From Bacillales bacterium (lineage in GTDB: Bacteria; Bacillota; Bacilli; JARBTR01): DNA of 64,000 nucleotides. The DNA lies in the NCBI GenBank assembly GCA_031554185.1, contig JAVBKE010000023.1, positions 15,597 through 79,596 on the forward strand, read 5' to 3'. Below, in pieces: positions 9,719 through 64,000 of the stretch (position 1 is the stretch's first letter; every line of letters begins with the position of its first letter). Under the pieces are notes generated by a model. The model had not been told where the DNA came from. It worked only from the letters and a program-made list of their open reading frames with translations, and ran no database searches. Made by a program: the position numbers and the translations under genes.

Positions 9719-11617
9719 ATGACATTACAAGAATTTAAAAACTGGGGACTTTCACAAGGTGGAAACATCGGAAAATACAATGATGGTGGTTTTCCTGGTG
9801 AATGTGTAAGTTTTGTAAACCAATATTGTTACCGAGTGTTAAATGTTCCAGCTGGAGCATGGGGTCATGCTAAATCATGGGGAGACAATCAAGCCTCTCT
9901 TGCATATTTTGATATTGTTGGTGACATTCGTCCAGGAGACATCATTGTTTACCCAGATATGGGTGGTGGAGTTTATGGACACATCGAAGTCGCTCTTGAT
10001 GCTTCTACCGGAATCGATCAAAACGGACGAGCTGGTGCAGGACGAGTTGGAGTAGGTGGTTGGTTCGCAGGAAGAAAAAGAATTCTTCGTAAAAAAGGTG
10101 GACAAACTCTTGAGTCTAATCAGCGTCAAACAATTAATTCAACTATTAATCAAAGGTCTCAACCCACTACTAAGTCAGAAGTTAAGGGGACACTTGATCC
10201 AAATGTAGTTGGAACATTTAAAGGTTTCGTTCACGGAGAGGCAGTCGAAGGAAGCGACATTTGGTTTGTTGGAAACTTCTCTGGTTTATATTCTCACTCA
10301 AGTGGATTCACCAACTCAGGAACATCAGGGCTTCAAGACTTAACAGTATATGAAACTATTAAGCCTACTGAAAGAAAAGTTGCATTCGATGGAGTAACAT
10401 TCAGATCAGGGGCAAGTCGAGGATCTAGCGCGATTGCTTCTTATAACACCGGAGATGTCATCGACATGAAAGGCTGGGTTTACGGAGAAGAAGTTACAAC
10501 TGATGGAGGAAAATCAAATATCTGGTTTGTTTCATCTCTTCGAGGACTATATGCGCACTCAACACTATTTACAGATAAAAATGCTCATGATCTCTCTGAC
10601 TTGAATCCAAAAGATCCAGGTCCATCGGCTCCAGAAGAAGAGTTAAAATATCCTGAATATACGACTGATAAAAAAGTCACTGAAGTCGTGAACAAAAAAC
10701 ACCCGAATAATCCAATCACTTATGGCCCATCTGACTTGTCAACTGTCAATGGTCAAAAGCTTCGAAAAGAAACTGCAGAAGCTCTAGCAATGATGAACGA
10801 GGCTATAAAAAAAGAAAACATGTCATTGATAGTTGTAAGTGGATTCAGAACATTTGACTACCAGCAACAGCTTTACACAAATTACGTAAAACAAGATGGA
10901 ATTGAAGCAGCTGACAGGTACTCAGCTAGAGCTGGATATTCAGAGCACCAAACTGGTTTGACAGCTGATTTAAATGATATTGATGACAAGTTCAAAAATA
11001 CAAAAGAATACTCATGGCTTGTAAAAAACGCATACAAGTATGGATTCATACTTAGATATCCTGACGGAGAAGAATCTGTTACAGGTTATATGTATGAACC
11101 TTGGCACTGGAGATATGCTGGTGTAGAAGTAGCCACTGATATGAAAAATAAGAATGTTTCTACACTTGAACGATATTACGACATCTCTGGTGGAGATTAT
11201 TACAAAGAGAATCCAACTCCAACACCAGACCCTGACCCAGAGCCAACTCCAGGTCCTGATCCGACTCCAGATCCTGACCCTACGCCTGATCCTAACCCTG
11301 AACCAACTCCAGACCCTGAGCCCGAGCCTGAAATACCTGGTACAATAGCTATTGAGGAAATGAAAAAATTGAAAGAAGATCTCGACAAAGCTATTAACCA
11401 GGTTGAAAACCAAGAAGATGTTCCATCTGTAAGTGACAACGTCAGACACATTGCATATTGGATATTTGATGGTTTATTGTTGATTGCTCCAATCATTGGT
11501 ATGTTGATGATTTATCCTCAACTTCCTCCAGCAGCTATGCCAATCGCAGTAGCGACAATTCTTACAGCTTTTGCAAATGCAGGATTAACGCTTTTCCAAC
11601 TCAATAAGAAAAAGTAG
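9719..11617 (+). CDS. multidomain peptidoglycan hydrolase (lysin): CHAP + 2 SH3-like repeats + M15/VanY D-Ala-D-Ala carboxypeptidase + PT-rich linker + C-terminal 2-TM tail
   Basis: N-term FPGECVSFVNQYCY..GHIEVAL (CHAP Cys/His); two ~45-aa repeats GxxxGEAVEGSDIWFVxxxxGLYxHS; SGFRTFDYQQQLY..YSEHQTGLTADL..EPWHWRY (VanY/M15); PTPDPDPEPTP linker; hydrophobic C-terminus ending KKK. Confidence 0.8.
   Translation: MTLQEFKNWGLSQGGNIGKYNDGGFPGECVSFVNQYCYRVLNVPAGAWGHAKSWGDNQASLAYFDIVGDIRPGDIIVYPDMGGGVYGHIEVALDASTGIDQNGRAGAGRVGVGGWFAGRKRILRKKGGQTLESNQRQTINSTINQRSQPTTKSEVKGTLDPNVVGTFKGFVHGEAVEGSDIWFVGNFSGLYSHSSGFTNSGTSGLQDLTVYETIKPTERKVAFDGVTFRSGASRGSSAIASYNTGDVIDMKGWVYGEEVTTDGGKSNIWFVSSLRGLYAHSTLFTDKNAHDLSDLNPKDPGPSAPEEELKYPEYTTDKKVTEVVNKKHPNNPITYGPSDLSTVNGQKLRKETAEALAMMNEAIKKENMSLIVVSGFRTFDYQQQLYTNYVKQDGIEAADRYSARAGYSEHQTGLTADLNDIDDKFKNTKEYSWLVKNAYKYGFILRYPDGEESVTGYMYEPWHWRYAGVEVATDMKNKNVSTLERYYDISGGDYYKENPTPTPDPDPEPTPGPDPTPDPDPTPDPNPEPTPDPEPEPEIPGTIAIEEMKKLKEDLDKAINQVENQEDVPSVSDNVRHIAYWIFDGLLLIAPIIGMLMIYPQLPPAAMPIAVATILTAFANAGLTLFQLNKKK
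11222..11335 (+). repeat. imperfect 6-nt tandem repeats (cct gac cca gag ...) encoding the PT/PD/PE linker
   Basis: low-complexity DNA visible in sequence; coding. Confidence 0.7.
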
Positions 11618-31730: not shown

Positions 31731-32663
31731 ATGCCAGTAAATAATTCTATCGAGAGAGTCAAACACTCAGTTGAGAACTTCTTTGGAATAAAGCCAAAAA
31801 CGAAGTTCAAAATGTTAGAAGAAAATATTTCTGTAAAATTAGTTGATGGAAGCTACCAAACATGGGAACAACTACTTGAATCAATTCCAAGTTTTGTTTC
31901 AGCGACATGGGGTTTAAAAACAGAGTTTTCTGAAGAAGAAAAAGAAGAAATCGTTATGAAGATGTTTAAGAACGAACATCTTCCAGGAGCTCAAGAAACT
32001 TTTAGATTTACGTTTTTGGTAGACAACATGACATATGTAGAGGTCAGCCATTTTTTGAGGCATCGTGAAGTAACATTCTCTGCGGTCTGCACTGGAGATA
32101 GAAATCTTGCCCAAGACGACATATTGATTCCTGAATCAATAATGAACATGCCAAAACTTTGTAAAAAGTATATGGAAACTTGCCAGATTCAAAAAGAATT
32201 GTATCAAGAAGCAGTTGATTCAAAATTGGTGTCTCATATGGATGCACGATATATGCTTCCAAAGTCAACAAGGCAAACATACTTTATGAGTATGGATTGG
32301 CGAACTCTTGTGAAGATCATCAATCAAAGGATGGATCGACAAATTCAGCCAAAGGGAGATAACTTGATTGCATATGGAATGTGGAATGCAATTCTCGAAG
32401 CTTATCCAAAATTGAAAGAATTGAACATAGTAAACGTTGATTCGATGAACAAGTTTTATGTTGCAAATGCTCGAAAAGAGATGACGACTAATTTGTATTA
32501 TCCAGAAAAACAAAATGATGTTTTCGATTTTAGAGAAGACGACTTTGTTTATCAAGGAAATCGAGAAGATTTTAATGGAAAAGCTCCAAAAGGAACTTCT
32601 TCAAAATTCCAAAAACTTCTTGAAAAATACCGAGAAAAGTTTAATGGAAAAACAGATAGTTAA
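31731..32663 (+). CDS. thyX: flavin-dependent thymidylate synthase (ThyX)-like
   Basis: LRHREVTFS RHR motif; spacing differs from canonical RHRx7S. Confidence 0.45.
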   Translation: MPVNNSIERVKHSVENFFGIKPKTKFKMLEENISVKLVDGSYQTWEQLLESIPSFVSATWGLKTEFSEEEKEEIVMKMFKNEHLPGAQETFRFTFLVDNMTYVEVSHFLRHREVTFSAVCTGDRNLAQDDILIPESIMNMPKLCKKYMETCQIQKELYQEAVDSKLVSHMDARYMLPKSTRQTYFMSMDWRTLVKIINQRMDRQIQPKGDNLIAYGMWNAILEAYPKLKELNIVNVDSMNKFYVANARKEMTTNLYYPEKQNDVFDFREDDFVYQGNREDFNGKAPKGTSSKFQKLLEKYREKFNGKTDS

Positions 32664-33462
32664 AGACAAATACTTAAACTTATTTGTTTATTATGTGAAT
32701 ATGGCAATGGGGGACAAAAAGTCTCCCATTGATCTTGTAGCAAAAAAATTAAATCCTGTGTTTGATTTTCCCGACCCAAGAAGAGAAAAACAGCCAATGG
32801 CGATATTATGCTTTGAAATCCAAAAACAACATAATTATTCTAACGAAGAGCTATTTAACCTGATAGTATTTTCTAGATTGTGCTGGAATCCAGAAACGAT
32901 AGAATACATTACATATTTATGCAGACCATCGATAGAAAATCTTGAAAATGGAAAGTTCGAACAAGCGTGTATTGACACAAAGAAGAAGAAAAATAAGTTC
33001 TGGTCTAATTCTTATATGCCACCAGGTTGCACAAACTTTAGTGACTTATGCAATGTATTGAAAGAATTGTTTTATGAAGTTTTTAAAAAAGATCTTTCTG
33101 CTGAAGAAGCATACATGACAATAAATTCAAAAAAAGGACTTGGGCAATTTTATTCAAACCTTCTAGTTTCCGATATTCATTTTTGTGTTAAAGAATTCAG
33201 AGAATTCGACAAGTATTTCCCGAAACCAGGAAGCGGAGCAATTGAAGGTTATAAAAAAATAACTGGAAAGAAATATGACAAGGAAAGCTTTGCCAGAAGC
33301 ATTCTAGAGGTCCAGGATAAACTTAAAGAGCTAAATATGGATTTACACTATACTCAAATAGAAGATGAATACTGTGAGTTCAACAAGTACTTAAGAGAAT
33401 TTGAGAAAGTTTCAAAAAAGTCTCAAGAAAGAATCATAGACAATATTTACTTTTTGAAATAA
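32644..33462 (+). CDS. hypothetical protein within nucleotide-metabolism cluster
   Basis: start ATG 32644 overlapping upstream gene by 20 nt. Confidence 0.4.
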   Translation: MEKQIVKDKYLNLFVYYVNMAMGDKKSPIDLVAKKLNPVFDFPDPRREKQPMAILCFEIQKQHNYSNEELFNLIVFSRLCWNPETIEYITYLCRPSIENLENGKFEQACIDTKKKKNKFWSNSYMPPGCTNFSDLCNVLKELFYEVFKKDLSAEEAYMTINSKKGLGQFYSNLLVSDIHFCVKEFREFDKYFPKPGSGAIEGYKKITGKKYDKESFARSILEVQDKLKELNMDLHYTQIEDEYCEFNKYLREFEKVSKKSQERIIDNIYFLK

Positions 33463-33498: not shown

Positions 33499-34092
33499 AT
33501 GGAAGAAGATCTGTTAATTGAATTACGAGAAAATGGTTGTTTACAAGTATTTCTCAAGATAAATGATTCTAACCTTTACAAACAATTTAATGTCAATCGA
33601 TGGTCTGGTAGGCAATTTATTAAGGAACAAAACGATGGAGAGCATCATGCGATTGTTGCTCAAACTATAGTTAAAGTTTGTGAACATTATGACAAACAAT
33701 TGACATTCGAGCAAAAATATAAAGCGCTAGCCCTTGGTTCGATTCATGATTTAGGTGAAATCGAGACAAATGACATCTCTCATGTTTTTAAGCAAAAGCA
33801 TCCAGATATCAAGAAAAAACTTGAAGAATTAGAAGATGAAATCATATCGTCAATTCCAGGATATGAAACTATTTACACGGAAGCAATAAATGATCCGGTG
33901 ACTGAGGCGATTTTTAAAATCGGAGATAATATCGATTGTTATCTTTATACAGGAAGAGAAATTGAGCTTGGCACGAAGAATAAAGAGTTAATTCAAATAC
34001 ATAAAGATTCTGGAAAACGAGTTTCTCAATGGATTGAAAGACTTGATAATTTGATCAATAACAAGGAAGCAAAGCATGTCGAAGACCACTAA
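33499..34092 (+). CDS. HD-domain phosphohydrolase (5'-deoxynucleotidase-like)
   Basis: H..H ... LGSIHDLGE ... D pattern; AAGGAGGG RBS. Confidence 0.55.
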   Translation: MEEDLLIELRENGCLQVFLKINDSNLYKQFNVNRWSGRQFIKEQNDGEHHAIVAQTIVKVCEHYDKQLTFEQKYKALALGSIHDLGEIETNDISHVFKQKHPDIKKKLEELEDEIISSIPGYETIYTEAINDPVTEAIFKIGDNIDCYLYTGREIELGTKNKELIQIHKDSGKRVSQWIERLDNLINNKEAKHVEDH

Positions 34093-36599: not shown

Positions 36600-37268
36600 A
36601 TGCAGCACTTAAAAGAACGAGAATTCGATATCAACAATATTCAAAAAGTTGATATCAATGAAGTCAAATACAACACATGGAATCCGAAACAAAAAAGAAC
36701 AAAAGAGTATGAAAAGGTTTTCAAGTCTATCGAAAAGAACGGATCCCTTGCTCCAATTTTTGTCAGAGAAATTGATGATGAAAACTTTGGTTATGAAATT
36801 GTTGATGGAGCTCAAAGATATACAGCTATGCTTGATCTTTCGTACCCAGAAGTTTATATTTACAACCTAGGAAAAATCACTGACGAAGAAGGGCAAGCTT
36901 TAACTTTATATTTAGATCAAAGTGTTCCATTCGACGATGATATGTTAGGAAAGTTGTTGTCAGACCTTCAAAGAACTGTTGATTTGCCTTACACAGATGA
37001 AGAAATTGCTTTATTTTCTGGAATTGACATTTCTATCGAAGAAGATGAAGATGGTGACGACTTTGATATTACATCGAAACTAAAAGATTTTCGAATTAAG
37101 ATCACAAAAAATCAATATAATGAAGCGTTGAACTTCTTCAATGTTAAAAACGAAGAACTTGAGCACAGTTTTACTTCGATATTCATGACAATGATTAGAG
37201 AGTCGAATAATTTAGAATTCAAAGAAGAGAACCTTCAAAATGCAGAAGATGAACTCATCGACGAATAG
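36600..37268 (+). CDS. ParB-like nuclease domain protein
   Basis: YEIVDGAQRYTAM matches ParB/Srx core; GGAGG RBS. Confidence 0.5.
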   Translation: MQHLKEREFDINNIQKVDINEVKYNTWNPKQKRTKEYEKVFKSIEKNGSLAPIFVREIDDENFGYEIVDGAQRYTAMLDLSYPEVYIYNLGKITDEEGQALTLYLDQSVPFDDDMLGKLLSDLQRTVDLPYTDEEIALFSGIDISIEEDEDGDDFDITSKLKDFRIKITKNQYNEALNFFNVKNEELEHSFTSIFMTMIRESNNLEFKEENLQNAEDELIDE

Positions 37269-39090: not shown

Positions 39091-39184
39091 TTAACAATCA
39101 AAATACAGGGAATTAGGCTAATGGTAAACCTTTGGATTCCAAACCCAACATTTACAGTTCAAATCTGTAATTCCCTGCCAATAT

Positions 39185-39261
39185 GCCACTTTAGCTCAGC
39201 TGGTTAGAGCAACTGCTTTGTAAGCAGTAGGTCCTCGGTTCGAATCCGAGAAGTGGCTCCA
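39185..39261 (+). tRNA. tRNA-Thr: tRNA-Thr (anticodon TGT)
   Basis: acceptor gccactt/aagtggc, anticodon stem actgc/gcagt loop tttgtaa, T arm ctcgg-ttcgaat-ccgag, CCA encoded. Confidence 0.75.
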
Positions 39262-39264
39262 AAT

Positions 39265-39278
39265 AAAGTATTTACTTT
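39265..39278. promoter_or_regulatory. operator-like palindrome AAAGTATTTACTTT
   Basis: inverted-repeat motif between first tRNA and rest of array. Confidence 0.4.
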
Positions 39279-39439
39279 TTAATATAAGTGAATTATAATA
39301 ATTAAGAACTTTAAAAATTAACAACTGGCGGACAAGGCTTTGGCGCAAGTATAAGAGATTGAAAAATTGAGTCTCAGTTTTCACACTGGAAAATTATACG
39401 TTAAATAGCGATGGGTAGCGAGTGGCCAGTTTCAAGCAT

Positions 39440-39513
39440 AGCAGGGAAAGATTTGGTAATCTATCTTGTCTCATAAGCAAGAGGTGAAGGTTCGATTCCT
39501 TCCCTTGCATCCA
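39440..39513 (+). tRNA. tRNA-like, CAT anticodon (Met/Ile2), non-canonical
   Basis: anticodon stem cttgt/gcaag loop ctcataa, T arm gaagg-ttcgatt-ccttc, CCA; A1.A72 mismatch, short D loop, extra nt at position 26. Confidence 0.3.
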
Positions 39514-39519
39514 ATTTGA

Positions 39520-39594
39520 TGGGCGATGGTGTAATGGTTAGCACAGAACTTTCATACGGTTCAAGTCAAAGTTCAACTCTTTGTTGCCCAACCA
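39520..39594 (+). tRNA. tRNA-Met: tRNA-Met/Ile2 (anticodon CAT)
   Basis: acceptor tgggcga/ttgccca, D loop aatggtta, anticodon stem gaact/ggttc loop ttcatac, T arm caaag-ttcaact-ctttg, CCA. Confidence 0.7.
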
Positions 39595-39601
39595 AAAACA
39601 T

Positions 39602-39677
39602 CAGGGTAAAGTGTTGATGGTAACACACTCGGCCTGGAACCGAGAGATTGTGAGTTCGACCCTCGCAACCCTGACCA
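39602..39677 (+). tRNA. tRNA-Pro: tRNA-Pro (anticodon TGG)
   Basis: acceptor cagggta/aaccctg, anticodon stem ctcgg/ccgag loop cctggaa, T arm gtgag-ttcgacc-ctcgc, CCA. Confidence 0.75.
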
Positions 39678-39749
39678 CGAGAGTTAGTGTAAATGCTAAC
39701 ACGCTTTCCATAGGGGAAAGAAAAGGTGGTTCAACTCCATCACTCTCGA
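39678..39749 (+). tRNA. tRNA-like, undetermined isotype (anticodon loop cATAGGg; TAG if canonical)
   Basis: perfect acceptor cgagagt/actctcg, D stem gtgt/acac with D loop aaatgcta (no GG), anticodon stem ctttc/gaaag, T arm ggtgg-ttcaact-ccatc, A73, no CCA; position 33 is A. Confidence 0.4.
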
Positions 39750-39755
39750 ACATGA

Positions 39756-39841
39756 GCTAGAGCGACGAAGTGGGAGAGTCGTGGCAGACTGTAAATCTGT
39801 TCCCGTTGGGTGAGTAGGTTCGAATCCTACCTCTGGCACCA
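39756..39841 (+). tRNA. tRNA-Tyr: tRNA-Tyr (anticodon GTA), long variable arm
   Basis: acceptor gctagag/ctctggc, anticodon stem gcaga/tctgt loop ctgtaaa, long variable arm, T arm gtagg-ttcgaat-cctac, CCA. Confidence 0.75.
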
Positions 39842-39847
39842 AATTAT

Positions 39848-39921
39848 AGGGGATTAGTATAATGGTAGAACGTTGCTCTGATGTGGCGAAGGTATAGGTT
39901 CAATTCCTTTATCCCCTACCA
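39848..39921 (+). tRNA. tRNA-Ile: tRNA-Ile (anticodon GAT)
   Basis: perfect acceptor aggggat/atcccct, anticodon stem ttgct/ggcga loop ctgatgt, T loop ttcaatt, CCA. Confidence 0.7.
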
Positions 39922-40316
39922 AAAAAGCACATTAACAAGTGATTATATAGTTTTATGAGCAAATGAGTCGAACGAAAGTTTAACGCTCTGTTTTCAAACA
40001 GGAACCTCATTTGTTCAGGTAAATTACACGTGGTGGAAAATTAGGTAGACACTATAGGACGCAATAAGTATCGGGAAAAGATGGTAGCGTTGTGGAATGT
40101 AACACCCAGATTTTCTTCTAAGTACACGAAGAAAGATTACGTTGGCGGTAACTGGCAACAGATTGCGTCAAGGGAGCATCCGCGCCGGTGACTCGATATA
40201 TGCAAGGTTAACTATTCTAGTTGCAATGTAAGCTAGAATATTCTCTATGAGATATTTGAATAAAGCTATTGCCTAGACAAACCCTTGCCGTGTTATTTCA
40301 TAGAACTATATAATTA

Positions 40317-40391
40317 GCCCACATAGTGAAACGGATATAATATTAGTCTTCGAAACTAAAGTTTCAGGTTCGAATCCTGATGAGGGCACCA
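40317..40391 (+). tRNA. tRNA-Arg: tRNA-Arg (anticodon TCG)
   Basis: acceptor gcccaca/tgagggc (one mismatch), anticodon stem ttagt/actaa loop cttcgaa, T arm tcagg-ttcgaat-cctga, CCA. Confidence 0.65.
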
Positions 40392-40396
40392 AATTT

Positions 40397-40471
40397 GCAA
40401 GTGAAGTGTTTATGGTTGCACTTCTGCCTTCCAAGCAGAGAGACAGAGTTCGAATCTCTGCACTTGCACCA
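40397..40471 (+). tRNA. tRNA-Gly: tRNA-Gly (anticodon TCC)
   Basis: perfect acceptor gcaagtg/cacttgc, D gtgt..gcac, anticodon stem tctgc/gcaga loop cttccaa, T arm cagag-ttcgaat-ctctg, CCA. Confidence 0.8.
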
Positions 40472-40475
40472 ATAA

Positions 40476-40552
40476 GCTCCGGTAGCTCAAATGGATAGAG
40501 TAATAGGTTTCTACCCTACAGGTTGGGGGTTCGAATCCCTCTCGGAGTACCA
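40476..40552 (+). tRNA. tRNA-Arg: tRNA-Arg (anticodon TCT)
   Basis: acceptor gctccgg/tcggagt, anticodon loop tttctac, T arm ggggg-ttcgaat-ccctc, CCA. Confidence 0.65.
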
Positions 40553-40563
40553 TTAACAATTTA

Positions 40564-40638
40564 GGGGTGTTCGTATAACGGTTATTACTGTTGCTTTGCA
40601 AGCAACGAACCAGAGTTCGACTCTCTGACACTCCACCA
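40564..40638 (+). tRNA. tRNA-Ala: tRNA-Ala (anticodon TGC)
   Basis: acceptor ggggtgt/acactcc with G3.U70, anticodon stem gttgc/gcaac loop tttgcaa, T arm cagag-ttcgact-ctctg, CCA. Confidence 0.75.
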
Positions 40639-40644
40639 AAACGA

Positions 40645-40720
40645 GCGGGTATAGCCAAGTGGTTAAGGCGCTGGATTTTCATTCCAGTATTCGTCGGTTC
40701 GAATCCGTCTACCCGTACCA
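40645..40720 (+). tRNA. tRNA-Glu: tRNA-Glu (anticodon TTC)
   Basis: acceptor gcgggta/tacccgt, anticodon stem ctgga/tccag loop ttttcat, T loop ttcgaat, CCA. Confidence 0.75.
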
Positions 40721-40723
40721 AAT

Positions 40724-40801
40724 GCTTCTCTATCCCAACTGGCAGAGGAGAACGGCTCAAACCCGTTTAATGTCTCAGTTCGAATCTGAGGAGAAGCACC
40801 A
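40724..40801 (+). tRNA. tRNA with Leu anticodon CAA but short (6-nt) variable arm
   Basis: perfect acceptor gcttctc/gagaagc, anticodon stem aacgg/ccgtt loop ctcaaac, T arm ctcag-ttcgaat-ctgag, A73, CCA. Confidence 0.55.
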
Positions 40802-40804
40802 TAC

Positions 40805-40889
40805 GCATAAGTGGTGGAACTGGTATACACGCGTGTCTTAGAAGCACGTGCCGAAAGGATTGAGAGTTCAAGTCTCTCCTTATGCACCA
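40805..40889 (+). tRNA. tRNA-Leu: tRNA-Leu (anticodon TAG), canonical long variable arm
   Basis: perfect acceptor gcataag/cttatgc, anticodon stem cgtgt/gcacg loop cttagaa, 13-nt variable arm, T arm gagag-ttcaagt-ctctc, CCA. Confidence 0.8.
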
Positions 40890-40893
40890 ACAA

Positions 40894-40969
40894 GCTTCTG
40901 TAGCCCAAAGGCAGAGGCAAACGACTTAAGATCGTTAAAGTGTTGGTTCGACTCCAACCAGAAGCACCA
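40894..40969 (+). tRNA. tRNA with Leu anticodon TAA but short (5-nt) variable arm
   Basis: perfect acceptor gcttctg/cagaagc, anticodon stem aacga/tcgtt loop cttaaga, T arm gttgg-ttcgact-ccaac, A73, CCA; canonical 76-nt class I cloverleaf. Confidence 0.6.
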
Positions 40970-41024
40970 GCGCATGTACTGGTAAGATGATATAATAAGT
41001 GTATTATCTAAAAGGAATAAATAT

Positions 41025-41210
41025 ATGCTCTTAACAGTTTTCGCAGCAGTAATCGTAATACTATTGTTTGTATTATTCATAAGGCTGATAGCCTCGTTGT
41101 TTTCTACAGCGATTCGACCATTATCAGAAAAGAATAATTCAGTTTACACAATTGTTACAGCGATTTTAGCTGCATTAGCACTATGGTGGCTATTGTCACT
41201 AGTGCTGTAG
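41025..41210 (+). CDS. small hydrophobic membrane protein (61 aa, 2 predicted TM) embedded in tRNA array
   Basis: ORF MLLTVFAAVIVILLFVLF... between tRNA blocks; weak RBS. Confidence 0.4.
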   Translation: MLLTVFAAVIVILLFVLFIRLIASLFSTAIRPLSEKNNSVYTIVTAILAALALWWLLSLVL

Positions 41211-41212
41211 AT

Positions 41213-41298
41213 GGAAGATATCCGGCCGGATGAGGACACCGCTTTGAAAGCGGCTGGGTGTTAAAGCCTTCAGGGTTCGAGTCCCTGGTCTTCCGCCA
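41213..41298 (+). tRNA. tRNA-Ser: tRNA-Ser (anticodon TGA), long variable arm
   Basis: acceptor ggaagat/gtcttcc, anticodon stem ccgc/gcgg loop tttgaaa, long variable arm, T arm caggg-ttcgagt-ccctg, G73, CCA. Confidence 0.75.
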
Positions 41299-41301
41299 AA
41301 T

Positions 41302-41377
41302 GCCCATATAGTGTAGCGGTTTGCATACTTCCCTGTCACGGAAGAGGCCACGGGTTCAAATCCCGTTGTGGGCGCCA
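41302..41377 (+). tRNA. tRNA-Asp: tRNA-Asp (anticodon GTC)
   Basis: acceptor gcccata/tgtgggc, anticodon stem cttcc/ggaag loop ctgtcac, T arm acggg-ttcaaat-cccgt, G73, CCA. Confidence 0.8.
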
Positions 41378-41382
41378 GATAA

Positions 41383-41457
41383 TGCGTATTCGTCCAACGG
41401 TTAGGACATCGGACTTATATTCCGACAACATCAGTTCAACTCTGATATACGCTACCA
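41383..41457 (+). tRNA. tRNA-Ile: tRNA-Ile (anticodon TAT)
   Basis: acceptor tgcgtat/atacgct (U1.U72 mismatch), D gtcc..ggac, anticodon stem tcgga/tccga loop cttatat, T arm atcag-ttcaact-ctgat, CCA. Confidence 0.6.
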
Positions 41458-41462
41458 AGTAA

Positions 41463-41538
41463 GCTCCCTTAGCTCAATGGCTAGAGCGCCCTCCTTACAA
41501 GTGGGAGGTTCCTGGTTCGAATCCAGGAGGGAGTACCA
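41463..41538 (+). tRNA. tRNA-Val: tRNA-Val (anticodon TAC)
   Basis: acceptor gctccct/agggagt, D gctc..gagc, anticodon loop cttacaa, T arm cctgg-ttcgaat-ccagg, CCA. Confidence 0.75.
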
Positions 41539-41543
41539 AGTAA

Positions 41544-41617
41544 TCCCTTGTGGTGAAATGGTATCACAATTGGCTGTTAACCAATCATTTCAGGTTCAAG
41601 TCCTGGCGAGGGAGCCA
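41544..41617 (+). tRNA. tRNA-Asn: tRNA-Asn (anticodon GTT)
   Basis: acceptor tcccttg/cgaggga, D gtga..tcac, anticodon stem attgg/ccaat loop ctgttaa, T loop ttcaagt, G73, CCA. Confidence 0.8.
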
Positions 41618-41623
41618 AAATAT

Positions 41624-41699
41624 GGTGAGCATAGTGTAATAGTTCGCACGTCACCCTGTGAAGGTGAAGGAACTGGTGCAAATCCAGTTGTTTACCCCA
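41624..41699 (+). tRNA. tRNA-His: tRNA-His (anticodon GTG) with G-1
   Basis: extra 5' G pairing with C73 (His identity), acceptor gtgagca/tgtttac, anticodon stem tcacc/ggtga loop ctgtgaa, T arm actgg-tgcaaat-ccagt, CCA. Confidence 0.8.
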
Positions 41700-41704
41700 A
41701 ATAG

Positions 41705-41780
41705 TAGGAAGTAGCTTAATCGGTAGAGCATCGAGCTTTGAACTCGAAGGTTGCAGGTTCGACCCCTGCCTTCCTAGCCA
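41705..41780 (+). tRNA. tRNA-Gln: tRNA-Gln (anticodon TTG)
   Basis: perfect acceptor taggaag/cttccta, anticodon stem tcgag/ctcga loop ctttgaa, T arm gcagg-ttcgacc-cctgc, G73, CCA. Confidence 0.8.
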
Positions 41781-41784
41781 AATT

Positions 41785-41877
41785 GGAAGATTGGCGGAGC
41801 TTGGTTTATCGCACTTCATTGCTAATGAAGCGTGTGGAGAGATCCCACCGTAGGTTCGAATCCTGCATCTTCCGCCA
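41785..41877 (+). tRNA. tRNA-Ser: tRNA-Ser (anticodon GCT), long variable arm
   Basis: acceptor ggaagat/atcttcc (identical to the other Ser tRNA), anticodon stem cttca/tgaag loop ttgctaa, long variable arm, T loop ttcgaat, G73, CCA. Confidence 0.8.
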
Positions 41878-42015
41878 AATTGTTTACTTTAAATCTTTCG
41901 TGTGATATAATTCTTAATATGATTAACTTAACCTGTAAAACAACCAAAAAGTTTACGATCTCCAGTCGGAGAAACGATTATTTGGTTTAATATCTAGTTA
42001 AAAAATCATAAATCG

Positions 42016-42041
42016 AACTCCGGCTGATAGCGGAGTTTTTT
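42016..42041 (+). terminator. rho-independent terminator inside tRNA array
   Basis: aactccg-gctgatag-cggagtt hairpin plus TTTTTT. Confidence 0.5.
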
Positions 42042-42045
42042 ATTT

Positions 42046-42120
42046 GCCCCCATAGCTCAATGGTAGAGCACCATCCTTGTAAGATGGCGACGAAAGTTCG
42101 ATTCTGTTCTGGGGGAGCCA
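42046..42120 (+). tRNA. tRNA-Thr-like (anticodon TGT), irregular T-arm/acceptor (possible pseudo-tRNA)
   Basis: acceptor gccccca/tggggga with G1.A72 mismatch, perfect D stem gctc/gagc, anticodon stem ccatc/gatgg loop cttgtaa, T loop ttcgatt with weak stem and an extra c, CCA. Confidence 0.45.
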
Positions 42121-42123
42121 AAC

Positions 42124-42197
42124 GGGTTGATAGTTCAACGGTAGAATAACTGGCTCTTAACCAGTCCACGAAGGTTCGACACCTTCTCAGCCCACCA
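42124..42197 (+). tRNA. tRNA-Lys: tRNA-Lys (anticodon CTT)
   Basis: acceptor gggttga/tcagccc, anticodon stem actgg/ccagt loop ctcttaa, T arm gaagg-ttcgaca-ccttc, CCA. Confidence 0.75.
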
Positions 42198-42205
42198 AAA
42201 TATAT

Positions 42206-42280
42206 GCCTTCGTAGCATAGAAGTAAATGCACCTGCCTGAAGAGCAGGGGAATACAGTGCGATTCTGTACGTTGGCACCA
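42206..42280 (+). tRNA. tRNA-Phe: tRNA-Phe (anticodon GAA)
   Basis: acceptor gccttcg/cgttggc (two U.U mismatches at 4:69 and 5:68), perfect D stem gcat/atgc but D loop lacks GG, anticodon stem cctgc/gcagg loop ctgaaga, T arm tacag-tgcgatt-ctgta, CCA. Confidence 0.65.
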
Positions 42281-42284
42281 GTTT

Positions 42285-42358
42285 GGATCCTTGGCTTATC
42301 GGCTGAGCACTTGGCTTTTAACCAAGCGAGAGAGGTTCGACTCCTCTAGGATCCACCA
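42285..42358 (+). tRNA. tRNA-Lys: tRNA-Lys (anticodon TTT)
   Basis: perfect acceptor ggatcct/aggatcc, anticodon stem cttgg/ccaag loop cttttaa, T arm agagg-ttcgact-cctct, CCA. Confidence 0.8.
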
Positions 42359-42362
42359 TTAT

Positions 42363-42438
42363 GGCGTTGTGGGGGAGTGGTTTCACCCGTGTGCCTGCAA
42401 AGCACAAGACGTTGGTTCAAATCCAACCTGCGCTTCCA
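42363..42438 (+). tRNA. tRNA-Cys: tRNA-Cys (anticodon GCA)
   Basis: anticodon stem tgtgc/gcaca loop ctgcaaa, T arm gttgg-ttcaaat-ccaac, U73 discriminator (Cys identity), CCA. Confidence 0.75.
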
Positions 42439-42475
42439 TATTCACATTAAAGATTATTTGTTGTAGAATATTTCT

Positions 42476-42790
42476 ATGGAGAAAATTAGAGATTCTACCG
42501 GATGTCCTCCGGATATTTGCGGGACAGATGAATGTTTTGTTTTTAGAACAACTGGTGAATGCTTTGAAGATATTCATCATGAATTTCACCCTAGGAGAGA
42601 ATACAAAACAGGACTCGAAAGAAAGTTTCGAGAAATACCAGAGTTTAAAACTATTTTGTGCAGAGCTTCACATCAATTGATTCATGCAATGATCGATAAA
42701 AGAATTGAACCTTTGCCAGAAAAACCAGATCGCGTATTCATGTTAAACGCACTGCAAGAAGCACGACGATCAACAATGGTCAATAATTAA
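42476..42790 (+). CDS. HNH endonuclease
   Basis: CPPDICGTDEC...HHEFHPRREY...LCRASHQLIH HNH/Zn motifs; flanks tRNA array. Confidence 0.55.
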   Translation: MEKIRDSTGCPPDICGTDECFVFRTTGECFEDIHHEFHPRREYKTGLERKFREIPEFKTILCRASHQLIHAMIDKRIEPLPEKPDRVFMLNALQEARRSTMVNN

Positions 42791-42810
42791 TATACTTTCA
42801 CTAGACACTA

Positions 42811-42819
42811 TGGTATAAT
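42811..42819 (+). promoter_or_regulatory. extended -10 promoter TGGTATAAT
   Basis: TGnTATAAT upstream of SLT gene. Confidence 0.35.
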
Positions 42820-42985
42820 TGATCAGTCCAATTTTGAAAAGATAGTTTCTAATATTAGATAAATTATCCTATTATTCTGAGGACAAATATGAGTAGAAAT
42901 AAACGAACAATACAAGTTCCGCAAACGAAATTCATCACGACTAATTTTAGTCGTGTTTTTATTTGTGAACAAAAAAGGAGCGAAA

Positions 42986-43717
42986 ATGCTTAAATTAAAA
43001 CAATCTTTAAAAGGCTTTAAACAAAAGCTCAGACGTAAACACACACCAATGACGAAAGAAAAATTATCAAAACGTCTTAAAGTTTTGAAATGGATAATTT
43101 TGTTTTTGGTTCTTTCTGTTTTAGTGGCAATTGTATTTAACATAATACAAAGTGGAGAAATCAATAAGAGACAAAGAGAGATTGAAAATCGACAAATCCA
43201 AATTGAGCAAATCGACACAAAGTTAAATGACTCCAGGAAAAAACTTGACGATCAAGAAATCACTGTTCAAGAATATCAAAAAGAAGTCGATAAGTTAAAC
43301 AAAGAAAAAGAAGACCTGAATTCACAACTACAAGCAAAAGTTGAACGGCAGAAGCAAGAACAAATTGCATACGCCGAATCACAAAAGAAAGTTTCAGTTC
43401 AACAAACAGTCTCTCAACCAGTTCAATCTTCACCTCAAGTTTCAGGATCAAAAGCGGATTGGTTAGCTGCTTCAGGAATTCCTCAAAGTGAATGGGGGTA
43501 TGTTGATAGCATTGTTACAAAAGAAAGTGGATGGAATCCAAATGCAGTTAATTCTAGTTCTGGGGCATGTGGTCTAGGTCAACAACTTCCATGCGGAAAG
43601 TGGGCAGGAGCTTGGAATGATCCAGTCGCTGCTTTAGTTGCGATGAATGGATATGTTCAAAAATATGGTGGTTGGGCAGGAGCTGTGTCATTCTGGCAAA
43701 CTAATAGGTGGTATTAA
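42986..43717 (+). CDS. membrane-anchored lytic transglycosylase (SLT domain) with coiled-coil
   Basis: N-terminal TM helix, coiled coil, C-terminal ESGWNPNAVNSSSGACGLGQ (SLT ES...GLxQ motif); ATG 42986 after AAGGAG (track start 42953). Confidence 0.6.
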   Translation: MLKLKQSLKGFKQKLRRKHTPMTKEKLSKRLKVLKWIILFLVLSVLVAIVFNIIQSGEINKRQREIENRQIQIEQIDTKLNDSRKKLDDQEITVQEYQKEVDKLNKEKEDLNSQLQAKVERQKQEQIAYAESQKKVSVQQTVSQPVQSSPQVSGSKADWLAASGIPQSEWGYVDSIVTKESGWNPNAVNSSSGACGLGQQLPCGKWAGAWNDPVAALVAMNGYVQKYGGWAGAVSFWQTNRWY

Positions 43718-43725
43718 GGAGTCAT

Positions 43726-43821
43726 ATGAAAATTTCTAAAACAATGTTTCCAAAAAGATTTAAAAAAGCAGAACTTCCAAAAGAAGGCATTAAAGTTAGT
43801 ATGTACTTCGAAGAATCATAA
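43726..43821 (+). CDS. small basic peptide (31 aa)
   Basis: AAGGAG RBS 5 nt upstream of ATG, terminator hairpin immediately downstream. Confidence 0.35.
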   Translation: MKISKTMFPKRFKKAELPKEGIKVSMYFEES

Positions 43822-43840
43822 TTAACTACAAACAAATTTG

Positions 43841-43866
43841 AGCATCGAAAGGTGCTCTTTTTAATT
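43841..43866 (+). terminator. rho-independent terminator
   Basis: gagca-tcgaaagg-tgctc hairpin plus TTTTT. Confidence 0.45.
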
Positions 43867-43868
43867 AA

Positions 43869-43882
43869 AAAGTATTTACTTA
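43869..43882. promoter_or_regulatory. operator-like palindrome AAAGTATTTACTTA followed by ttagcatagataatatataat promoter
   Basis: inverted-repeat motif; same architecture as the site at 48823. Confidence 0.4.
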
Positions 43883-44025
43883 TTAGCATAGATAATATAT
43901 AATGCTTATATCAATCTAATATAGGATTGAAGAACATTTACCACTACTTAGATAGATTAAGGCGAAACAAATTTCAATTCGTGAGAGAAATTGAAGTGTG
44001 AGGGTAGGTCTTAATCTATCATCTT

Positions 44026-44100
44026 GCTTGCGTAGCTCAGAGGCAGAGCGCTTCCCTGTCACGGAAGAGGTCGAGATTTCAAAATTCTTCGTAGGCGCCA
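44026..44100 (+). tRNA. tRNA-Asp-like (anticodon GTC), diverged second copy outside main array
   Basis: acceptor gcttgcg/cgtaggc, perfect D stem gctc/gagc, anticodon arm identical to the array tRNA-Asp (cttcc-ctgtcac-ggaag), weak T arm gaga-ttcaaaa-tctt, G73, CCA. Confidence 0.45.
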
Positions 44101-60884: not shown

Positions 60885-63800
60885 ATGAATCCTTTTGCAA
60901 AAATCTTCAACATAAACAGAAACAAAGAAAAAACAATAGAAAACGATCGAAGGTTGTCAAACGATTACTTGCGAAATGGAAATGCGAAAGCCAAGAGAAC
61001 GATAATCATCGATGAAGAAGACAACAAGGAAACTTCATACTCTGGTTGGTTATACGCAGCGCTGAATGTTCGAGCAGATAACTTTGCTTCTTTTTGTGAA
61101 GAATCTGTCATGCCAGCATTTGACGTAGAAGATGAGAATGTTACAGTAAATCACCCTTATATCAAAATGATCGAGAATTCTCAACGATATGAAGAATACG
61201 ATTTTTGGCACGACATCTTAGCCGATTACGATATTTTTGGTGAATACTTTATTTTCATTTTGCGAAGAGTTGTGTATGAAAAAGATCCAAAAACTGGCAA
61301 ACAAGTATTGACTTATTGCGGGGAGCCTCAATCAATCGAAGTTTTAGATGCTGGAAACATGACTGTTTTGAAGAATGGTTATGGAGAAGTTGTTGGCTAC
61401 AAAGAGCAAGTAGATAGCACTCATTACAGGGAATTCTCAGTAGACCAAATTATTCACAGGATAAATAAGAATCCGATGAACAAGGAATTACCTTATTCTA
61501 TTTTTGATGCTGCTAGAGATTATCAATATACGATTAACAAAGGCAGCGACTATGCAAAAGCTGCTTTAATCAATAACATCAATACCCCTGCAATTATTAG
61601 TTCCCAGCAAGAACTTTCTCCAGATGAATACGATAACTTGGTTGCAAGAATTTCTCAACATGAAGCTGGAAAACCTATTGTTGCTAATGGTGCTGGTGCG
61701 ATTGATTACAAAGAAACAAATCAAAGTTTAGACAAAGCTTCTCTTCCTTCTTTAAATGAAATTAATCGACAAACAATTTATGCCATTACAGGAACTTCAA
61801 AAACTATTCTTGGTATCGAAGAATCAGGAACGACAAGAGAGACAGCTCGAGTCCAAGACAAGAAGTTTACACAAAAAACTATTCTTCCATTGGCAAAACG
61901 AGTTGTTGGCTCACTAAACCTTGATTTTAGAATTCACTATCCTGAAGCTGTAAAAAAATATAATTTAAAACTTGACATTAAAGATCTCACAGATCCTGAA
62001 GATGTTCAAGAAAAACTTACTACTCAAAAACTTTTATTCGACGATATTACAGAAATCGTTTATTCAGGTTACACAGCTCAATCAGCTGAAGATTTCATGT
62101 ATGGTGATATTTCATATACAGCTCTGGTACCTGATGAAGACTCTTCTCAAGATGAAACAGAAGAAGATGTTCCTGGAGGAATTAATTCACCTGAAGAAGA
62201 AGAAGAAGAAGAACCAGTTGACGAAACTCCAAAGGAAACAATGGATGGCGCAGTCGACTTAAAAGAGTCTGATAAACTATTAGTTCCAGAGAACTTTGTT
62301 CGGAATTATGTTCATGACAAAAATTACGTAAGCGACCTTATCATAGAAGAAAACGCAACCCCAAAAGGAAACCCTCACCATGATAAAGTTGGAAAGTTTA
62401 CTTATGGTCCTTATGGAGAATACACAGGTTTGGAAAAAACGACAAAGCTTTGCCAAACAATGAACAAACTTCTTGAGAAACAATATAAGAAGAGAGAAAA
62501 GATGGCGTCGATGGCGTCTGATGAGGAATTTTATAATCAATGGCAAGATCTTAAAGAGAAGTCAGGAGAAGTAATCAAGAATTACATCGAAGCAAATGGT
62601 GGTGATTACAACAAGTTGATGACGATGGAAAGTGATTGGGTAGGAAATGACTACAAGACAATTGAAGATCACATTAAAAACAAAGACTCAAAAGAATTAG
62701 AGTTGATGAATGCTCTTCAGCAAGCATATTTTCACGAAGCAGGAATTAAGGAGATTACCCTTGAAAGAGGTGTCTATGGGGATCAAGCAAAAAAACTAAA
62801 AGAAGCACAAAAAAGCGGGAAATCGATAGATCTTGGACCTGACTACGCAACTTCATTTACAGGAGATCATTATGCTGCAGTTGATTACGCTGATGGTGCT
62901 TCATTTACTGCTCCAGATGACATATCAGACTCTGTAGTTATTAAGAAAACAATTCCAGTAGATCAAATAGTCTATTCTACAGAGGTCCTTAGAGGAAAAG
63001 CTGGATCGTTAAAAGATGAATTTATCGTGACTATGCCAAAGGGAATGAAGATCGATCCAAGTGATATCGAAGTGATTAATTCGCTGGAAGATGTTGTCAC
63101 AAATAATATTGAAGATGAACACGATTTTAGCCCAAAGATCACCGAAGAGCATCAAGGTTGGGTAGGAGCTAAGGTAACGCCTATTGAGGTTTCTGACAGG
63201 CTAAGTGATGAATTGAAAATTCAGCTTGCAGATGAAAGTTTAATGGATGCCGAACAAGAGGCAACGAACAGTCCAGGACAAGAAAATCCTCACTTCACTG
63301 TTGTTTATGGTTTGAAAGAGGAAGCTTATAAAAATGATATTAAAAAACTTTTTAAAGATTTAGTTCCAAAAGAAGTAGAGATCGAATCAATTGAAAAATT
63401 CGACCTAGACAATGACGACTCTGATGTAATCGTCGCTAAGGTAAAAAAGACCCCAGAGCTAGAAGCTATGAATAAAGCTTTCTTGGAGCTACCTCATTAC
63501 GACCAGAAATTTCCAGATTACACTCCGCATGTTTCTTTGGTTTATGTCAAAAAAGATGCAGACGACAAAGAAATCATTGACTCATTTCAAGATTTAGTTG
63601 GTAAGAAACTTAAAGTTGCTGGAGCTGACTATGGTAAGAATTCTCCAATGACAACAAATCAAAAAGAAATCGATTTTGAGAATCATACTCACGATGGTGG
63701 TGAATTTACAATAGATGATCATATTAACTCTGTGTTTTCTAAGCGGCTTAATGATCTTGGTGAATTAGATGACTATTCTAAGACACAACAAGCTCAACTT

Positions 63801-64000
63801 ATAAAAGCAAAAGAAACACTTTTAAAAGGAATTCGTAAGGTGCAGTTGTTAGCAATTCAAAAAGCAAACAACAAAGTCGCTAAGAACGCTATTGAACGAT
63901 CTGATGTTATTTCTGAGGATGATGAAAACAGTTTAATTGAAAATCTTTATAATTTATTCAGACAATATTGGTTTTTGGCTTTGCCAGTTATTGGTAAAAA
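60885..64000 (+). CDS. large virion protein, portal-like N-terminal region fused to a long C-terminal extension containing a 2H-phosphoesterase-like domain (3' end outside window)
   Basis: own translation: ATG 60885, no stop to window end (>1038 aa; absent from ORF track because unterminated); poly-Glu linker near aa 445; C-terminal HFTVVYGL (63289) and HVSLVYV (63528) H-x-T/S-x motifs about 80 aa apart. Confidence 0.5.
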   Translation, partial: MNPFAKIFNINRNKEKTIENDRRLSNDYLRNGNAKAKRTIIIDEEDNKETSYSGWLYAALNVRADNFASFCEESVMPAFDVEDENVTVNHPYIKMIENSQRYEEYDFWHDILADYDIFGEYFIFILRRVVYEKDPKTGKQVLTYCGEPQSIEVLDAGNMTVLKNGYGEVVGYKEQVDSTHYREFSVDQIIHRINKNPMNKELPYSIFDAARDYQYTINKGSDYAKAALINNINTPAIISSQQELSPDEYDNLVARISQHEAGKPIVANGAGAIDYKETNQSLDKASLPSLNEINRQTIYAITGTSKTILGIEESGTTRETARVQDKKFTQKTILPLAKRVVGSLNLDFRIHYPEAVKKYNLKLDIKDLTDPEDVQEKLTTQKLLFDDITEIVYSGYTAQSAEDFMYGDISYTALVPDEDSSQDETEEDVPGGINSPEEEEEEEPVDETPKETMDGAVDLKESDKLLVPENFVRNYVHDKNYVSDLIIEENATPKGNPHHDKVGKFTYGPYGEYTGLEKTTKLCQTMNKLLEKQYKKREKMASMASDEEFYNQWQDLKEKSGEVIKNYIEANGGDYNKLMTMESDWVGNDYKTIEDHIKNKDSKELELMNALQQAYFHEAGIKEITLERGVYGDQAKKLKEAQKSGKSIDLGPDYATSFTGDHYAAVDYADGASFTAPDDISDSVVIKKTIPVDQIVYSTEVLRGKAGSLKDEFIVTMPKGMKIDPSDIEVINSLEDVVTNNIEDEHDFSPKITEEHQGWVGAKVTPIEVSDRLSDELKIQLADESLMDAEQEATNSPGQENPHFTVVYGLKEEAYKNDIKKLFKDLVPKEVEIESIEKFDLDNDDSDVIVAKVKKTPELEAMNKAFLELPHYDQKFPDYTPHVSLVYVKKDADDKEIIDSFQDLVGKKLKVAGADYGKNSPMTTNQKEIDFENHTHDGGEFTIDDHINSVFSKRLNDLGELDDYSKTQQAQLIKAKETLLKGIRKVQLLAIQKANNKVAKNAIERSDVISEDDENSLIENLYNLFRQYWFLALPVIGK

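Follow-up and report, generated by a model that had tools for sequence, protein, structure and literature searches.

Background

Phage polyvalent proteins unite effector-type enzymes with portal or MuF packaging domains in a single open reading frame (ORF). Among them, the work of Iyer et al. 2017 (PMC5512222) lists '2H domains fused to MuF or portal domains', states that 2H domains of the polyvalent type do not associate with RNA ligases, and offers two proposals for their role, a Usb1-like RNase activity or the degradation of nucleotide signals used by counter-invader systems. The 2H-portal/MuF fusion, and its proposed injection against nucleotide immune signalling, were restated in 2022 (PMC9503650). 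Here we describe a protein of this kind encoded at the downstream end of a 64,000 nucleotide (nt) stretch of DNA, which we call the window (GenBank assembly GCA_031554185.1, contig JAVBKE010000023.1, positions 15,597 to 79,596 of the forward strand). It carries an effector-type enzyme, a predicted 2H phosphodiesterase (PDE), together with portal and MuF packaging domains in one phage ORF, which is what defines a polyvalent protein, and it is a further member of the class published in 2017 and 2022. An earlier interpretation of the window made from its letters alone (the sequence-only reading) had taken a structural fusion of this kind to be undescribed; that claim fails, because Iyer et al. 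report both the fusion, in 2017 as in 2022, and the same hypothesis.

With the polyvalent proteins of Iyer et al. the protein shares the combination of portal, 2H and MuF, a portal-terminase phage context and the proposed packaged, injected role, and it has relatives with Zeta-toxin and ADP-ribosyltransferase (ART) domains after MuF, an arrangement typical of polyvalent proteins. Unlike their examples, it belongs to an uncultured AT-rich lineage of ~92-95 kb phages and holds a second, uncharacterised cargo domain ahead of 2H. SPP1 gp7/Mu F and the MuF polymorphic toxins (Jamet et al. 2017, PMC5576092) likewise have a MuF-like module beside the portal and variable enzymatic cargo. The MuF toxins differ, however, in that their cargo is C-terminal to MuF, their phages are mostly temperate and immunity genes accompany them, whereas here the cargo is N-terminal to MuF and MuF is fused to the portal; the layout of those toxins (N-terminal MuF, then C-terminal toxin) is thus not the one found here, where cargo precedes MuF. 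T4 Alt is alike in concept, a ready-made enzyme delivered with the DNA, but it is a separate head-targeted protein processed by the prohead protease, and such targeting or processing is not documented for the present protein.

The enzyme class itself is established by Acb1 (PMC9117128), the avian-poxvirus cyclic GMP-AMP (cGAMP) PDE (PMC11410667) and the viral 2H proteins surveyed by Doherty et al. (2025, 10.1101/2025.08.21.671373). The survey states that substrate range differs sharply by structural group and that lids may occur at either terminus. Neither portal nor MuF fusions are reported in the searched passages of the three papers.

A complete 2H domain inside a head protein

An ATG at position 60885 opens a frame without a stop as far as the window end, a length (>1038 codons) that agrees with the sequence-only reading. 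The database protein P0001 (1282 amino acids (aa), encoded on a 94.6-kb NCBI contig) is identical across the whole in-window part, and its own first residues agree with an ATG start at this point. The window ORF is therefore the first 1038 of 1282 aa, the gene extending ~730 nt past the window end. The domain order is portal, acidic linker, a ~280-aa domain, 2H, and a MuF/gp7-like head-morphogenesis domain (Table 1).

The first catalytic motif of the 2H domain is H803-F-T805 (HFTVVYGL, beginning at aa 803, nt 63291) and the second is H882-V-S884 (HVSLVYV, beginning at aa 882, nt 63528). The sequence-only reading had placed the second exactly and the first 2 nt off, at 63289, and its spacing of about 80 residues holds, since the motifs lie 79 residues apart and are the sole H-x-[TS]-x-hydrophobic motifs of the ORF. 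Across 20,000 composition-preserving shuffles a strict pair of motifs 60-110 aa apart never appeared (0/20,000), and a loose pair appeared in 2.9%. The opposite strand has no ORF of at least 50 aa across 63180-63640.

Profile searches place the domain in the 2H superfamily. PF13563 (2_5_RNA_ligase2) matches it with an E-value of 4.2e-10, and its cut-off of 27 bits is passed both by the isolated domain (40.3 bits) and by the entire ORF (36 bits); the AKAP7 and cyclic phosphodiesterase (CPDase) Pfam profiles also match, more weakly, and PHROG 755 matches at E 7e-15. An exhaustive profile search returned 2537 cluster representatives at E≤1e-3, 302 of them at E≤1e-10. In an alignment of 30 diverse family members both catalytic His residues are invariant and their Thr/Ser partners nearly so, and the catalytic residues were called invariant over 150 family representatives.

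An AlphaFold 2 (AF2) model built from the 30-sequence alignment has high predicted accuracy (pLDDT 92.1, pTM 0.87), with low confidence in the segment beyond the last strand. When the model was compared with the PDB by Foldseek, all 20 significant matches (E≤0.001) had the 2H fold, as did all 50 of those listed. The best was the penguinpox cGAMP PDE (E 8e-9, template modelling (TM) score 0.70), followed by phage BCSR5 PDE-9 (7e-6), plant CPDase (4e-5), Usb1 (6e-5) and FBB1 Acb1 (1.7e-4), with E. coli LigT reaching only ~E 1e-2. The avian poxvirus enzymes (penguinpox/pigeonpox; PDB 9BKQ, 9CIW; PMC11410667) are therefore the best structural match (TM 0.70/0.62) and share the catalytic motifs, yet they are free-standing proteins of a eukaryotic virus that target 2'3'-cGAMP, and their identity to the present domain is only 17-20%. 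Ranked by sequence profile against the PDB, the order is LigT-like PH0099 (1e-8), penguinpox PDE (8e-6, the third-best match), CPDase (1e-5) and Acb1-type entries (2e-3 to 8e-3).

Because the profiles match, the confident model has only 2H-fold matches in the PDB, and the catalytic residues are conserved, we assign aa ~751-926 as a complete, apparently active 2H phosphodiesterase with an intact catalytic centre. The domain is close to viral cGAMP-degrading enzymes, yet it is not demonstrably an Acb1 in the strict sense.

Table 1. Position of the polyvalent head protein gene and of its predicted domains in the window
Feature	Position (nt)	Strand	Basis
Polyvalent head protein ORF	60885..64000	+	no stop in 1038 codons; identical full-length P0001
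Portal domain (aa 1-415)	60885..62129	+	PF04860, PHROG 12, local hidden Markov model (HMM)
Acidic low-complexity linker (aa 416-464), including EEEEEEE at nt 62193-62213	62130..62276	+	sequence itself
First cargo domain (aa ~471-750)	62295..63134	+	alignment to ~300-aa insert of relatives
2H phosphodiesterase domain (aa 751-926; core aa 757-919 = nt 63153-63641)	63135..63662	+	profiles, AF2, Foldseek
His-rich junction (ENHTHD at nt 63678) and start of MuF/gp7-like domain (aa 927-1282; in window aa 927-1038)	63663..64000	+	PHROG 2468, hhalign

Portal and MuF modules

The portal-like nature that the sequence-only reading gave to the N-terminus is borne out by PF04860 (Phage_portal), which matches aa 57-379 with E 1e-22 and 81.2 bits against a cut-off of 39.1, by PHROG 12 'portal protein' (E 2.7e-24 for the N-terminal part), and by a local portal HMM, built from 120 homologues, that spans aa 12-428. 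No second portal was seen among the scanned ORFs of the window, which leaves ~30 kb of the genome uncovered.

Because ~355 further residues continue beyond 2H into a MuF-like domain, 2H is an internal cargo and not, as had been proposed, part of a C-terminal extension. The sequence-only reading was right to recognise a portal joined to 2H, but it missed both the additional cargo domain and the MuF-like module at the C-terminus; similarly, the poly-Glu linker does precede 2H, but the Glu run (aa 437-443) lies ~310 residues upstream with the ~280-aa domain between.

The MuF assignment, made on sequence at scores below the curated thresholds, is a reasonable one. PHROG 2468 'head morphogenesis' matches the C-terminal ~350 aa of P0001 at E 9.5e-11. 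PF04233 (Phage_Mu_F) reaches 15.1 bits for P0001 and 25.6 bits (E 2e-5) for the relative P0056, both under its cut-off of 29.6, and TIGR01641 scores 15.2 against a cut-off of 39.65. SPP1 gp7 gave no significant match when searched directly by HMM, and profile-profile comparison by hhalign gave modest support (P 9.5e-4), aligning a conserved core at aa 1151-1201 to gp7 161-210. The C-terminus of P0001 contains a CPxC...H-x-N-C-K-C motif, of which the terminal H-x-N-C-[KR]-C is shared with the MuF family, and the protein ends a few residues past this cysteine motif.

Neither megablast of the gene DNA nor whole-protein tblastn against GenBank phages found a match to the portal or MuF parts: the former returned nothing, and the latter matched solely through the 2H region, so that the protein has no annotated close relative there. 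Word-indexed searches returned one protein with the 2H domain alone and none with the middle domain. No compositional break was found across the gene between cargo and flanks, and a recent acquisition of the cargo was rejected on this uniform composition.

Spread of the fusion

Fusions were counted among the best 150 of the 302 2H-family cluster representatives with E≤1e-10, taking as long those proteins of at least 450 aa. Long proteins make up 54 of the 150 and are mostly portal/MuF fusions: by local HMMs, 22 have both portal and MuF, 21 have MuF alone with 2H N-terminal to it, and 5 have portal alone. H803, T805 and H882 are kept in all 54, and T/S884 in 53 of them. In the largest relatives, P0159 and P0219 (1700-2100 aa), MuF is followed by Zeta-toxin and ART domains. 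Across many phage lineages, members of the one 2H family recur between portal and MuF.

Candidate fusions in cultured phages come from the names and lengths of BFVD entries, in which a 2H domain of similar fold occurs within a Gordonia phage GMA2 'putative structural protein' (883 aa), a Microbacterium phage OneinaGillian 'capsid morphogenesis protein' (1050 aa) and others. A tblastn search of GenBank phages with the fusion relative P0151 returned free-standing 2H genes only. Where Microbacterium and Rhodococcus phages encode the homologue as a protein by itself, it goes under the name 'phosphoesterase' or 'RNA ligase', so that the family's annotation is generic.

A variable slot between portal and MuF

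The region between portal and MuF behaves as a modular slot. In ~82 of 120 homologues it holds a linker of 23-84 aa alone, and in 32 of the 120 a common insert of ~300 aa; in P0039 (a cluster of 42 sequences) it holds the 2H domain alone, in P0108 an AAT/peptidase C45-like hydrolase, and in P0113 a 179-aa insert of no assigned family. P0003, which has the insert, and P0030, which does not, share 96.7% identity across 812 residues and are set apart by a single clean insertion/deletion of 261 residues, indicating that assembly does not require the cargo and that phages almost identical to each other exchange it.

The middle domain of the present protein aligns over its full length with the ~300-aa insert of the 32 relatives, at 27% identity. 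It has no match in Pfam, PHROG or PDB-sequence searches, its AF2 model is poor (pLDDT 53.5), and Foldseek returned non-significant matches only, among them the ART-fold Vis toxin and IcmQ. Inspection by eye finds R…S-T-S…[Q/E]-x-E motifs in both the middle domain and the common insert, the ADP-ribosyltransferase-like R / S-x-S / E motifs of the former being LERGVYG (62760), ATSFT (62847) and DEFIV (63015). An ADP-ribosyltransferase identity for this domain is a lead only.

Two conserved elements frame the slot, at the same positions in P0003, P0039, P0094 and P0108. A GNP[H/Y]H..GKF..PY element opens the insert; in the window it appears near the start of the middle domain as GNPHHDKVGKF (nt 62367-62399). 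A His-rich H-x-H-x-H element (window 63678-63695) stands directly before MuF in all architectures, including those with no insert. These elements could be processing or metal-binding sites.

Relation to Acb1

Comparison with Acb1, as suggested by the sequence-only reading, is reasonable, given that cGAMP PDEs and Acb1-type enzymes are the best Foldseek matches and that hhalign relates the family to T4 Acb1 (sequence taken from the T4 record) with 85.5% probability (P 5.7e-6). The domain has the 2H fold and the same His-x-Thr/Ser pair as Acb1 (T4 gene 57B, Erwinia phage FBB1; PF23474) and BCSR5 PDE-9, and its second motif with flank is nearly identical to that of Acb1 (DYTPH[IV][TS]L.Y), hhalign pairing a near-identical F-x-D-Y-T-P-H-[IV]-[TS]-L-x-Y string of the family and T4 Acb1. 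Pfam Acb1 is matched by 25 of the 30 aligned family members, and two relatives with a portal fusion exceed its cut-off, P0122 at 32.2 bits and P0132 at 28.8 bits. Acb1 is, by contrast, a free-standing protein of ~150 aa, whereas the 2H domain here is internal to a structural protein of 1282 aa.

With T4 Acb1 added to the family alignment, its H44, T46, H113 and T115 align with H803, T805, H882 and S884. Acb1 is described as having base-stacking aromatics (Y12, W74, F107, W147) and a C-terminal lid (PMC9117128). In the alignment W74 pairs with F839 (Phe in 30 of 30 sequences) and F107 with F876 (26 Phe, 4 Tyr); W147 pairs with Y916 within a poorly aligned stretch, and Y12 was left unaligned by MAFFT, the equivalence of GLYVAAK and QGWVGAK being one seen by eye only. 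T4 Acb1 itself (gene 57B; L005 7592-8411, NC_000866) is labelled 'RNA ligase' in RefSeq and adjoins ipI, an internal virion protein gene.

Phage context

The phage is AT-rich (GC content 0.32-0.40), and its window encodes Pol III alpha replicase, an ATP-dependent DNA ligase, a tail Dit protein, RecT and YqaJ, with tail-fibre-like genes upstream of the portal gene. RNA ligase, polynucleotide kinase, RtcB and KptA were not found among the 50 larger window ORFs scanned, a scan that did not cover small ORFs or the ~30 kb beyond the window; the sole ligase found matches DNA ligases exclusively. The neighbourhood of the P0039 fusion gene shows no informative Pfam labels downstream and no protease.

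An array of 30 tRNAs on the forward strand (39107-44100) covers nearly all amino acids, with four for Leu and two each for Met, Ile, Arg, Ser, Thr, Lys and Asp among others, and is very large for a ~95-kb phage. A gene resembling Thy1/ThyX (31731-32663, +) overlaps one homologous to the 5-hydroxymethyldeoxyuridine (5-hmdU) DNA kinase helical domain (32515-33462, +), which is followed by a YfbR-like HD 5'-deoxynucleotidase (33499-34092, +); from their sequences these three genes suggest a thymidine hypermodification pathway for phage DNA. A ParB_N/GmrSD_N-like protein is encoded at 36600-37268 (+) and another near the P0039 fusion gene (L001 16768-17439); ParB-like nuclease domains in phage conflict systems are treated by Iyer et al. 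2017 (PMC5512222).

A lysin gene (9719-11617, +) encodes CHAP and VanY (D-Ala-D-Ala carboxypeptidase) domains with a Pro/Glu-rich repeat stretch, and the VanY domain points to a bacterial host with D-Ala-containing peptidoglycan. Relatives, including P0094, lie on ~91-92 kb contigs (L003, L004) in metagenome-assembled genomes named Candidatus Gastranaerophilales and Methanobrevibacter sp. Taken with the D-Ala-specific VanY lysin, these conflicting labels probably reflect mis-binned phage genomes and are not evidence of host.

Proposed delivery and substrate of the 2H cargo

Reasoning by analogy with the systems above, we favour, at about even confidence, a head-packaged 2H enzyme that is released, injected and cleaves nucleotide immune messengers. 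From the known topology of portals and of gp7, portal C-termini and MuF/gp7 should face the capsid interior, and because of this the 2H enzyme would be built into every virion. Proteolysis within the flexible acidic linker and the His-rich junction, or close to them, would probably free the cargo, which would enter the cell with the DNA, as with T4 Alt. Once injected, 2H would be a ready-made, metal-independent phosphodiesterase acting before phage genes are expressed. Its likeliest substrates would be cyclic or linear oligonucleotide immune messengers (those of CBASS (antiphage signalling based on cyclic oligonucleotides), type III CRISPR and similar systems), cleaved through both His-x-Thr/Ser motifs just as Acb1 and the cGAMP PDE of avian poxviruses do. 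The modelled fold speaks for such a substrate, its best Foldseek matches being experimentally characterised cGAMP-degrading viral enzymes (PMC9117128, PMC11410667, 10.1101/2025.08.21.671373). The genes themselves appear to point the same way, through the cargo logic of a swappable slot and through RNA-repair partner genes not having been found among the 50 larger ORFs scanned, the latter in agreement with Iyer et al. on polyvalent 2H domains without RNA ligases. PMC5512222 and PMC9503650 arrived independently at the same mechanism as a proposal.

This interpretation must be tempered by several points that weigh against it. A domain attached to the portal cannot leave the capsid uncleaved, being covalently joined to it, and no protease gene or cleavage site was identified in the window, beyond which the downstream genes lie. 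The literature searched contains no experimental evidence that a portal- or MuF-fused 2H domain is packaged, cleaved or injected, and no experimental demonstration of nucleotide-signal degradation by an injected enzyme. The fold does not give the substrate: Doherty et al. 2025 describe viral 2H groups of narrow specificity, and two groups inactive on all 18 messengers tested. The Acb1 profile (PF23474) scores 25.3-25.6 bits, under its gathering cut-off of 27; equivalents of the Acb1 lid and of Y12 were not placed reliably in the family alignment with T4 Acb1; and the family's best sequence-profile match in the PDB is the LigT-like archaeal 1vdx (E 1e-8).

That last match also bears on a rival explanation, in which the packaged 2H domain acts on RNA, either opening 2',3'-cyclic phosphate ends (LigT/CPDase-type healing) after attack by host anticodon or other metal-independent nucleases, or serving as a Usb1-like RNase early in infection. 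We regard this as unlikely, though it has real points in its favour: PF13563 and LigT-type profiles outscore Acb1 on the domain, the best sequence-profile matches in the PDB are the LigT-like 1vdx and 2fyh and then plant CPDase, Usb1 and CPDase are among the significant fold matches, and a Usb1-like RNase is one of the two proposals of Iyer et al. 2017 (PMC5512222). The 30-tRNA array, as heavy protection of translation, means that tRNA attack may be a relevant pressure. LigT, plant CPDase and Usb1 do belong to the same superfamily and share its catalytic chemistry, but the viral cGAMP PDEs outrank all three structurally (E. coli LigT stands at ~E 1e-2), and the genes scanned in the window, small ORFs and ~30 kb of genome aside, include none of the four RNA-repair partners sought, the ligase present being a DNA ligase.

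A second rival dispenses with injection altogether: the cargo stays tethered to portal/MuF in the capsid, or works only late in the producing cell by degrading abortive-infection signals, in assembly or in handling DNA ends. The 2H domain is indeed internal to a protein whose N-terminal part must remain in the portal ring, neither protease nor cleavage site was identified, and late synthesis is presumed from the membership of the domain in a portal gene; moreover, a capsid of SPP1 holds no more than 1-2 copies of gp7 (PMC5576092), so that a fused version in 12 copies would behave unlike the prototype. We nevertheless consider this rival unlikely, given that the cargo lies between a flexible acidic linker and a His-rich junction that is conserved, as expected of a releasable module, that head-packaged injected enzymes such as T4 Alt exist and gp7 is needed for efficient infection (PMC5512222, PMC5576092), and that the slot also holds effector-type domains, to which relatives add ART and Zeta toxin, cargo that would make little sense in a sealed capsid.

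A chance motif pair, or a degenerate and inactive 2H relic, is of negligible probability and effectively refuted: a loose H-x-T/S pair does turn up in a small fraction of shuffles, but the strict pair does not, the profile match (E 4e-10) exceeds its curated threshold, the 2H model is confident, and the catalytic residues are invariant in the 150 representatives, the 54 long proteins included.

The injected-enzyme reading can be carried further, into a version that we hold only tentatively and judge doubtful as a whole. In it, every virion would carry as many as twelve copies, linked to the portal, of an active PDE for cyclic oligonucleotides plus a second enzyme, both of which would be clipped off and injected, disarming CBASS or type III CRISPR before phage gene expression, and the slot would be a hot-swappable anti-defence cassette that differs between near-identical phages.

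Implications

For this window the result mainly confirms a published class; it is the family as a whole that makes a good experimental target. Because the family is large (302 representatives), with about one third of the best 150 being fusions that all retain both His residues, it supplies many candidates for direct test, and the presence/absence polymorphism of the cargo provides natural, isogenic-like pairs for comparison. If they are packaged and injected, these proteins would bring ready counter-defence enzymes into action ahead of phage gene expression and independently of early transcription.

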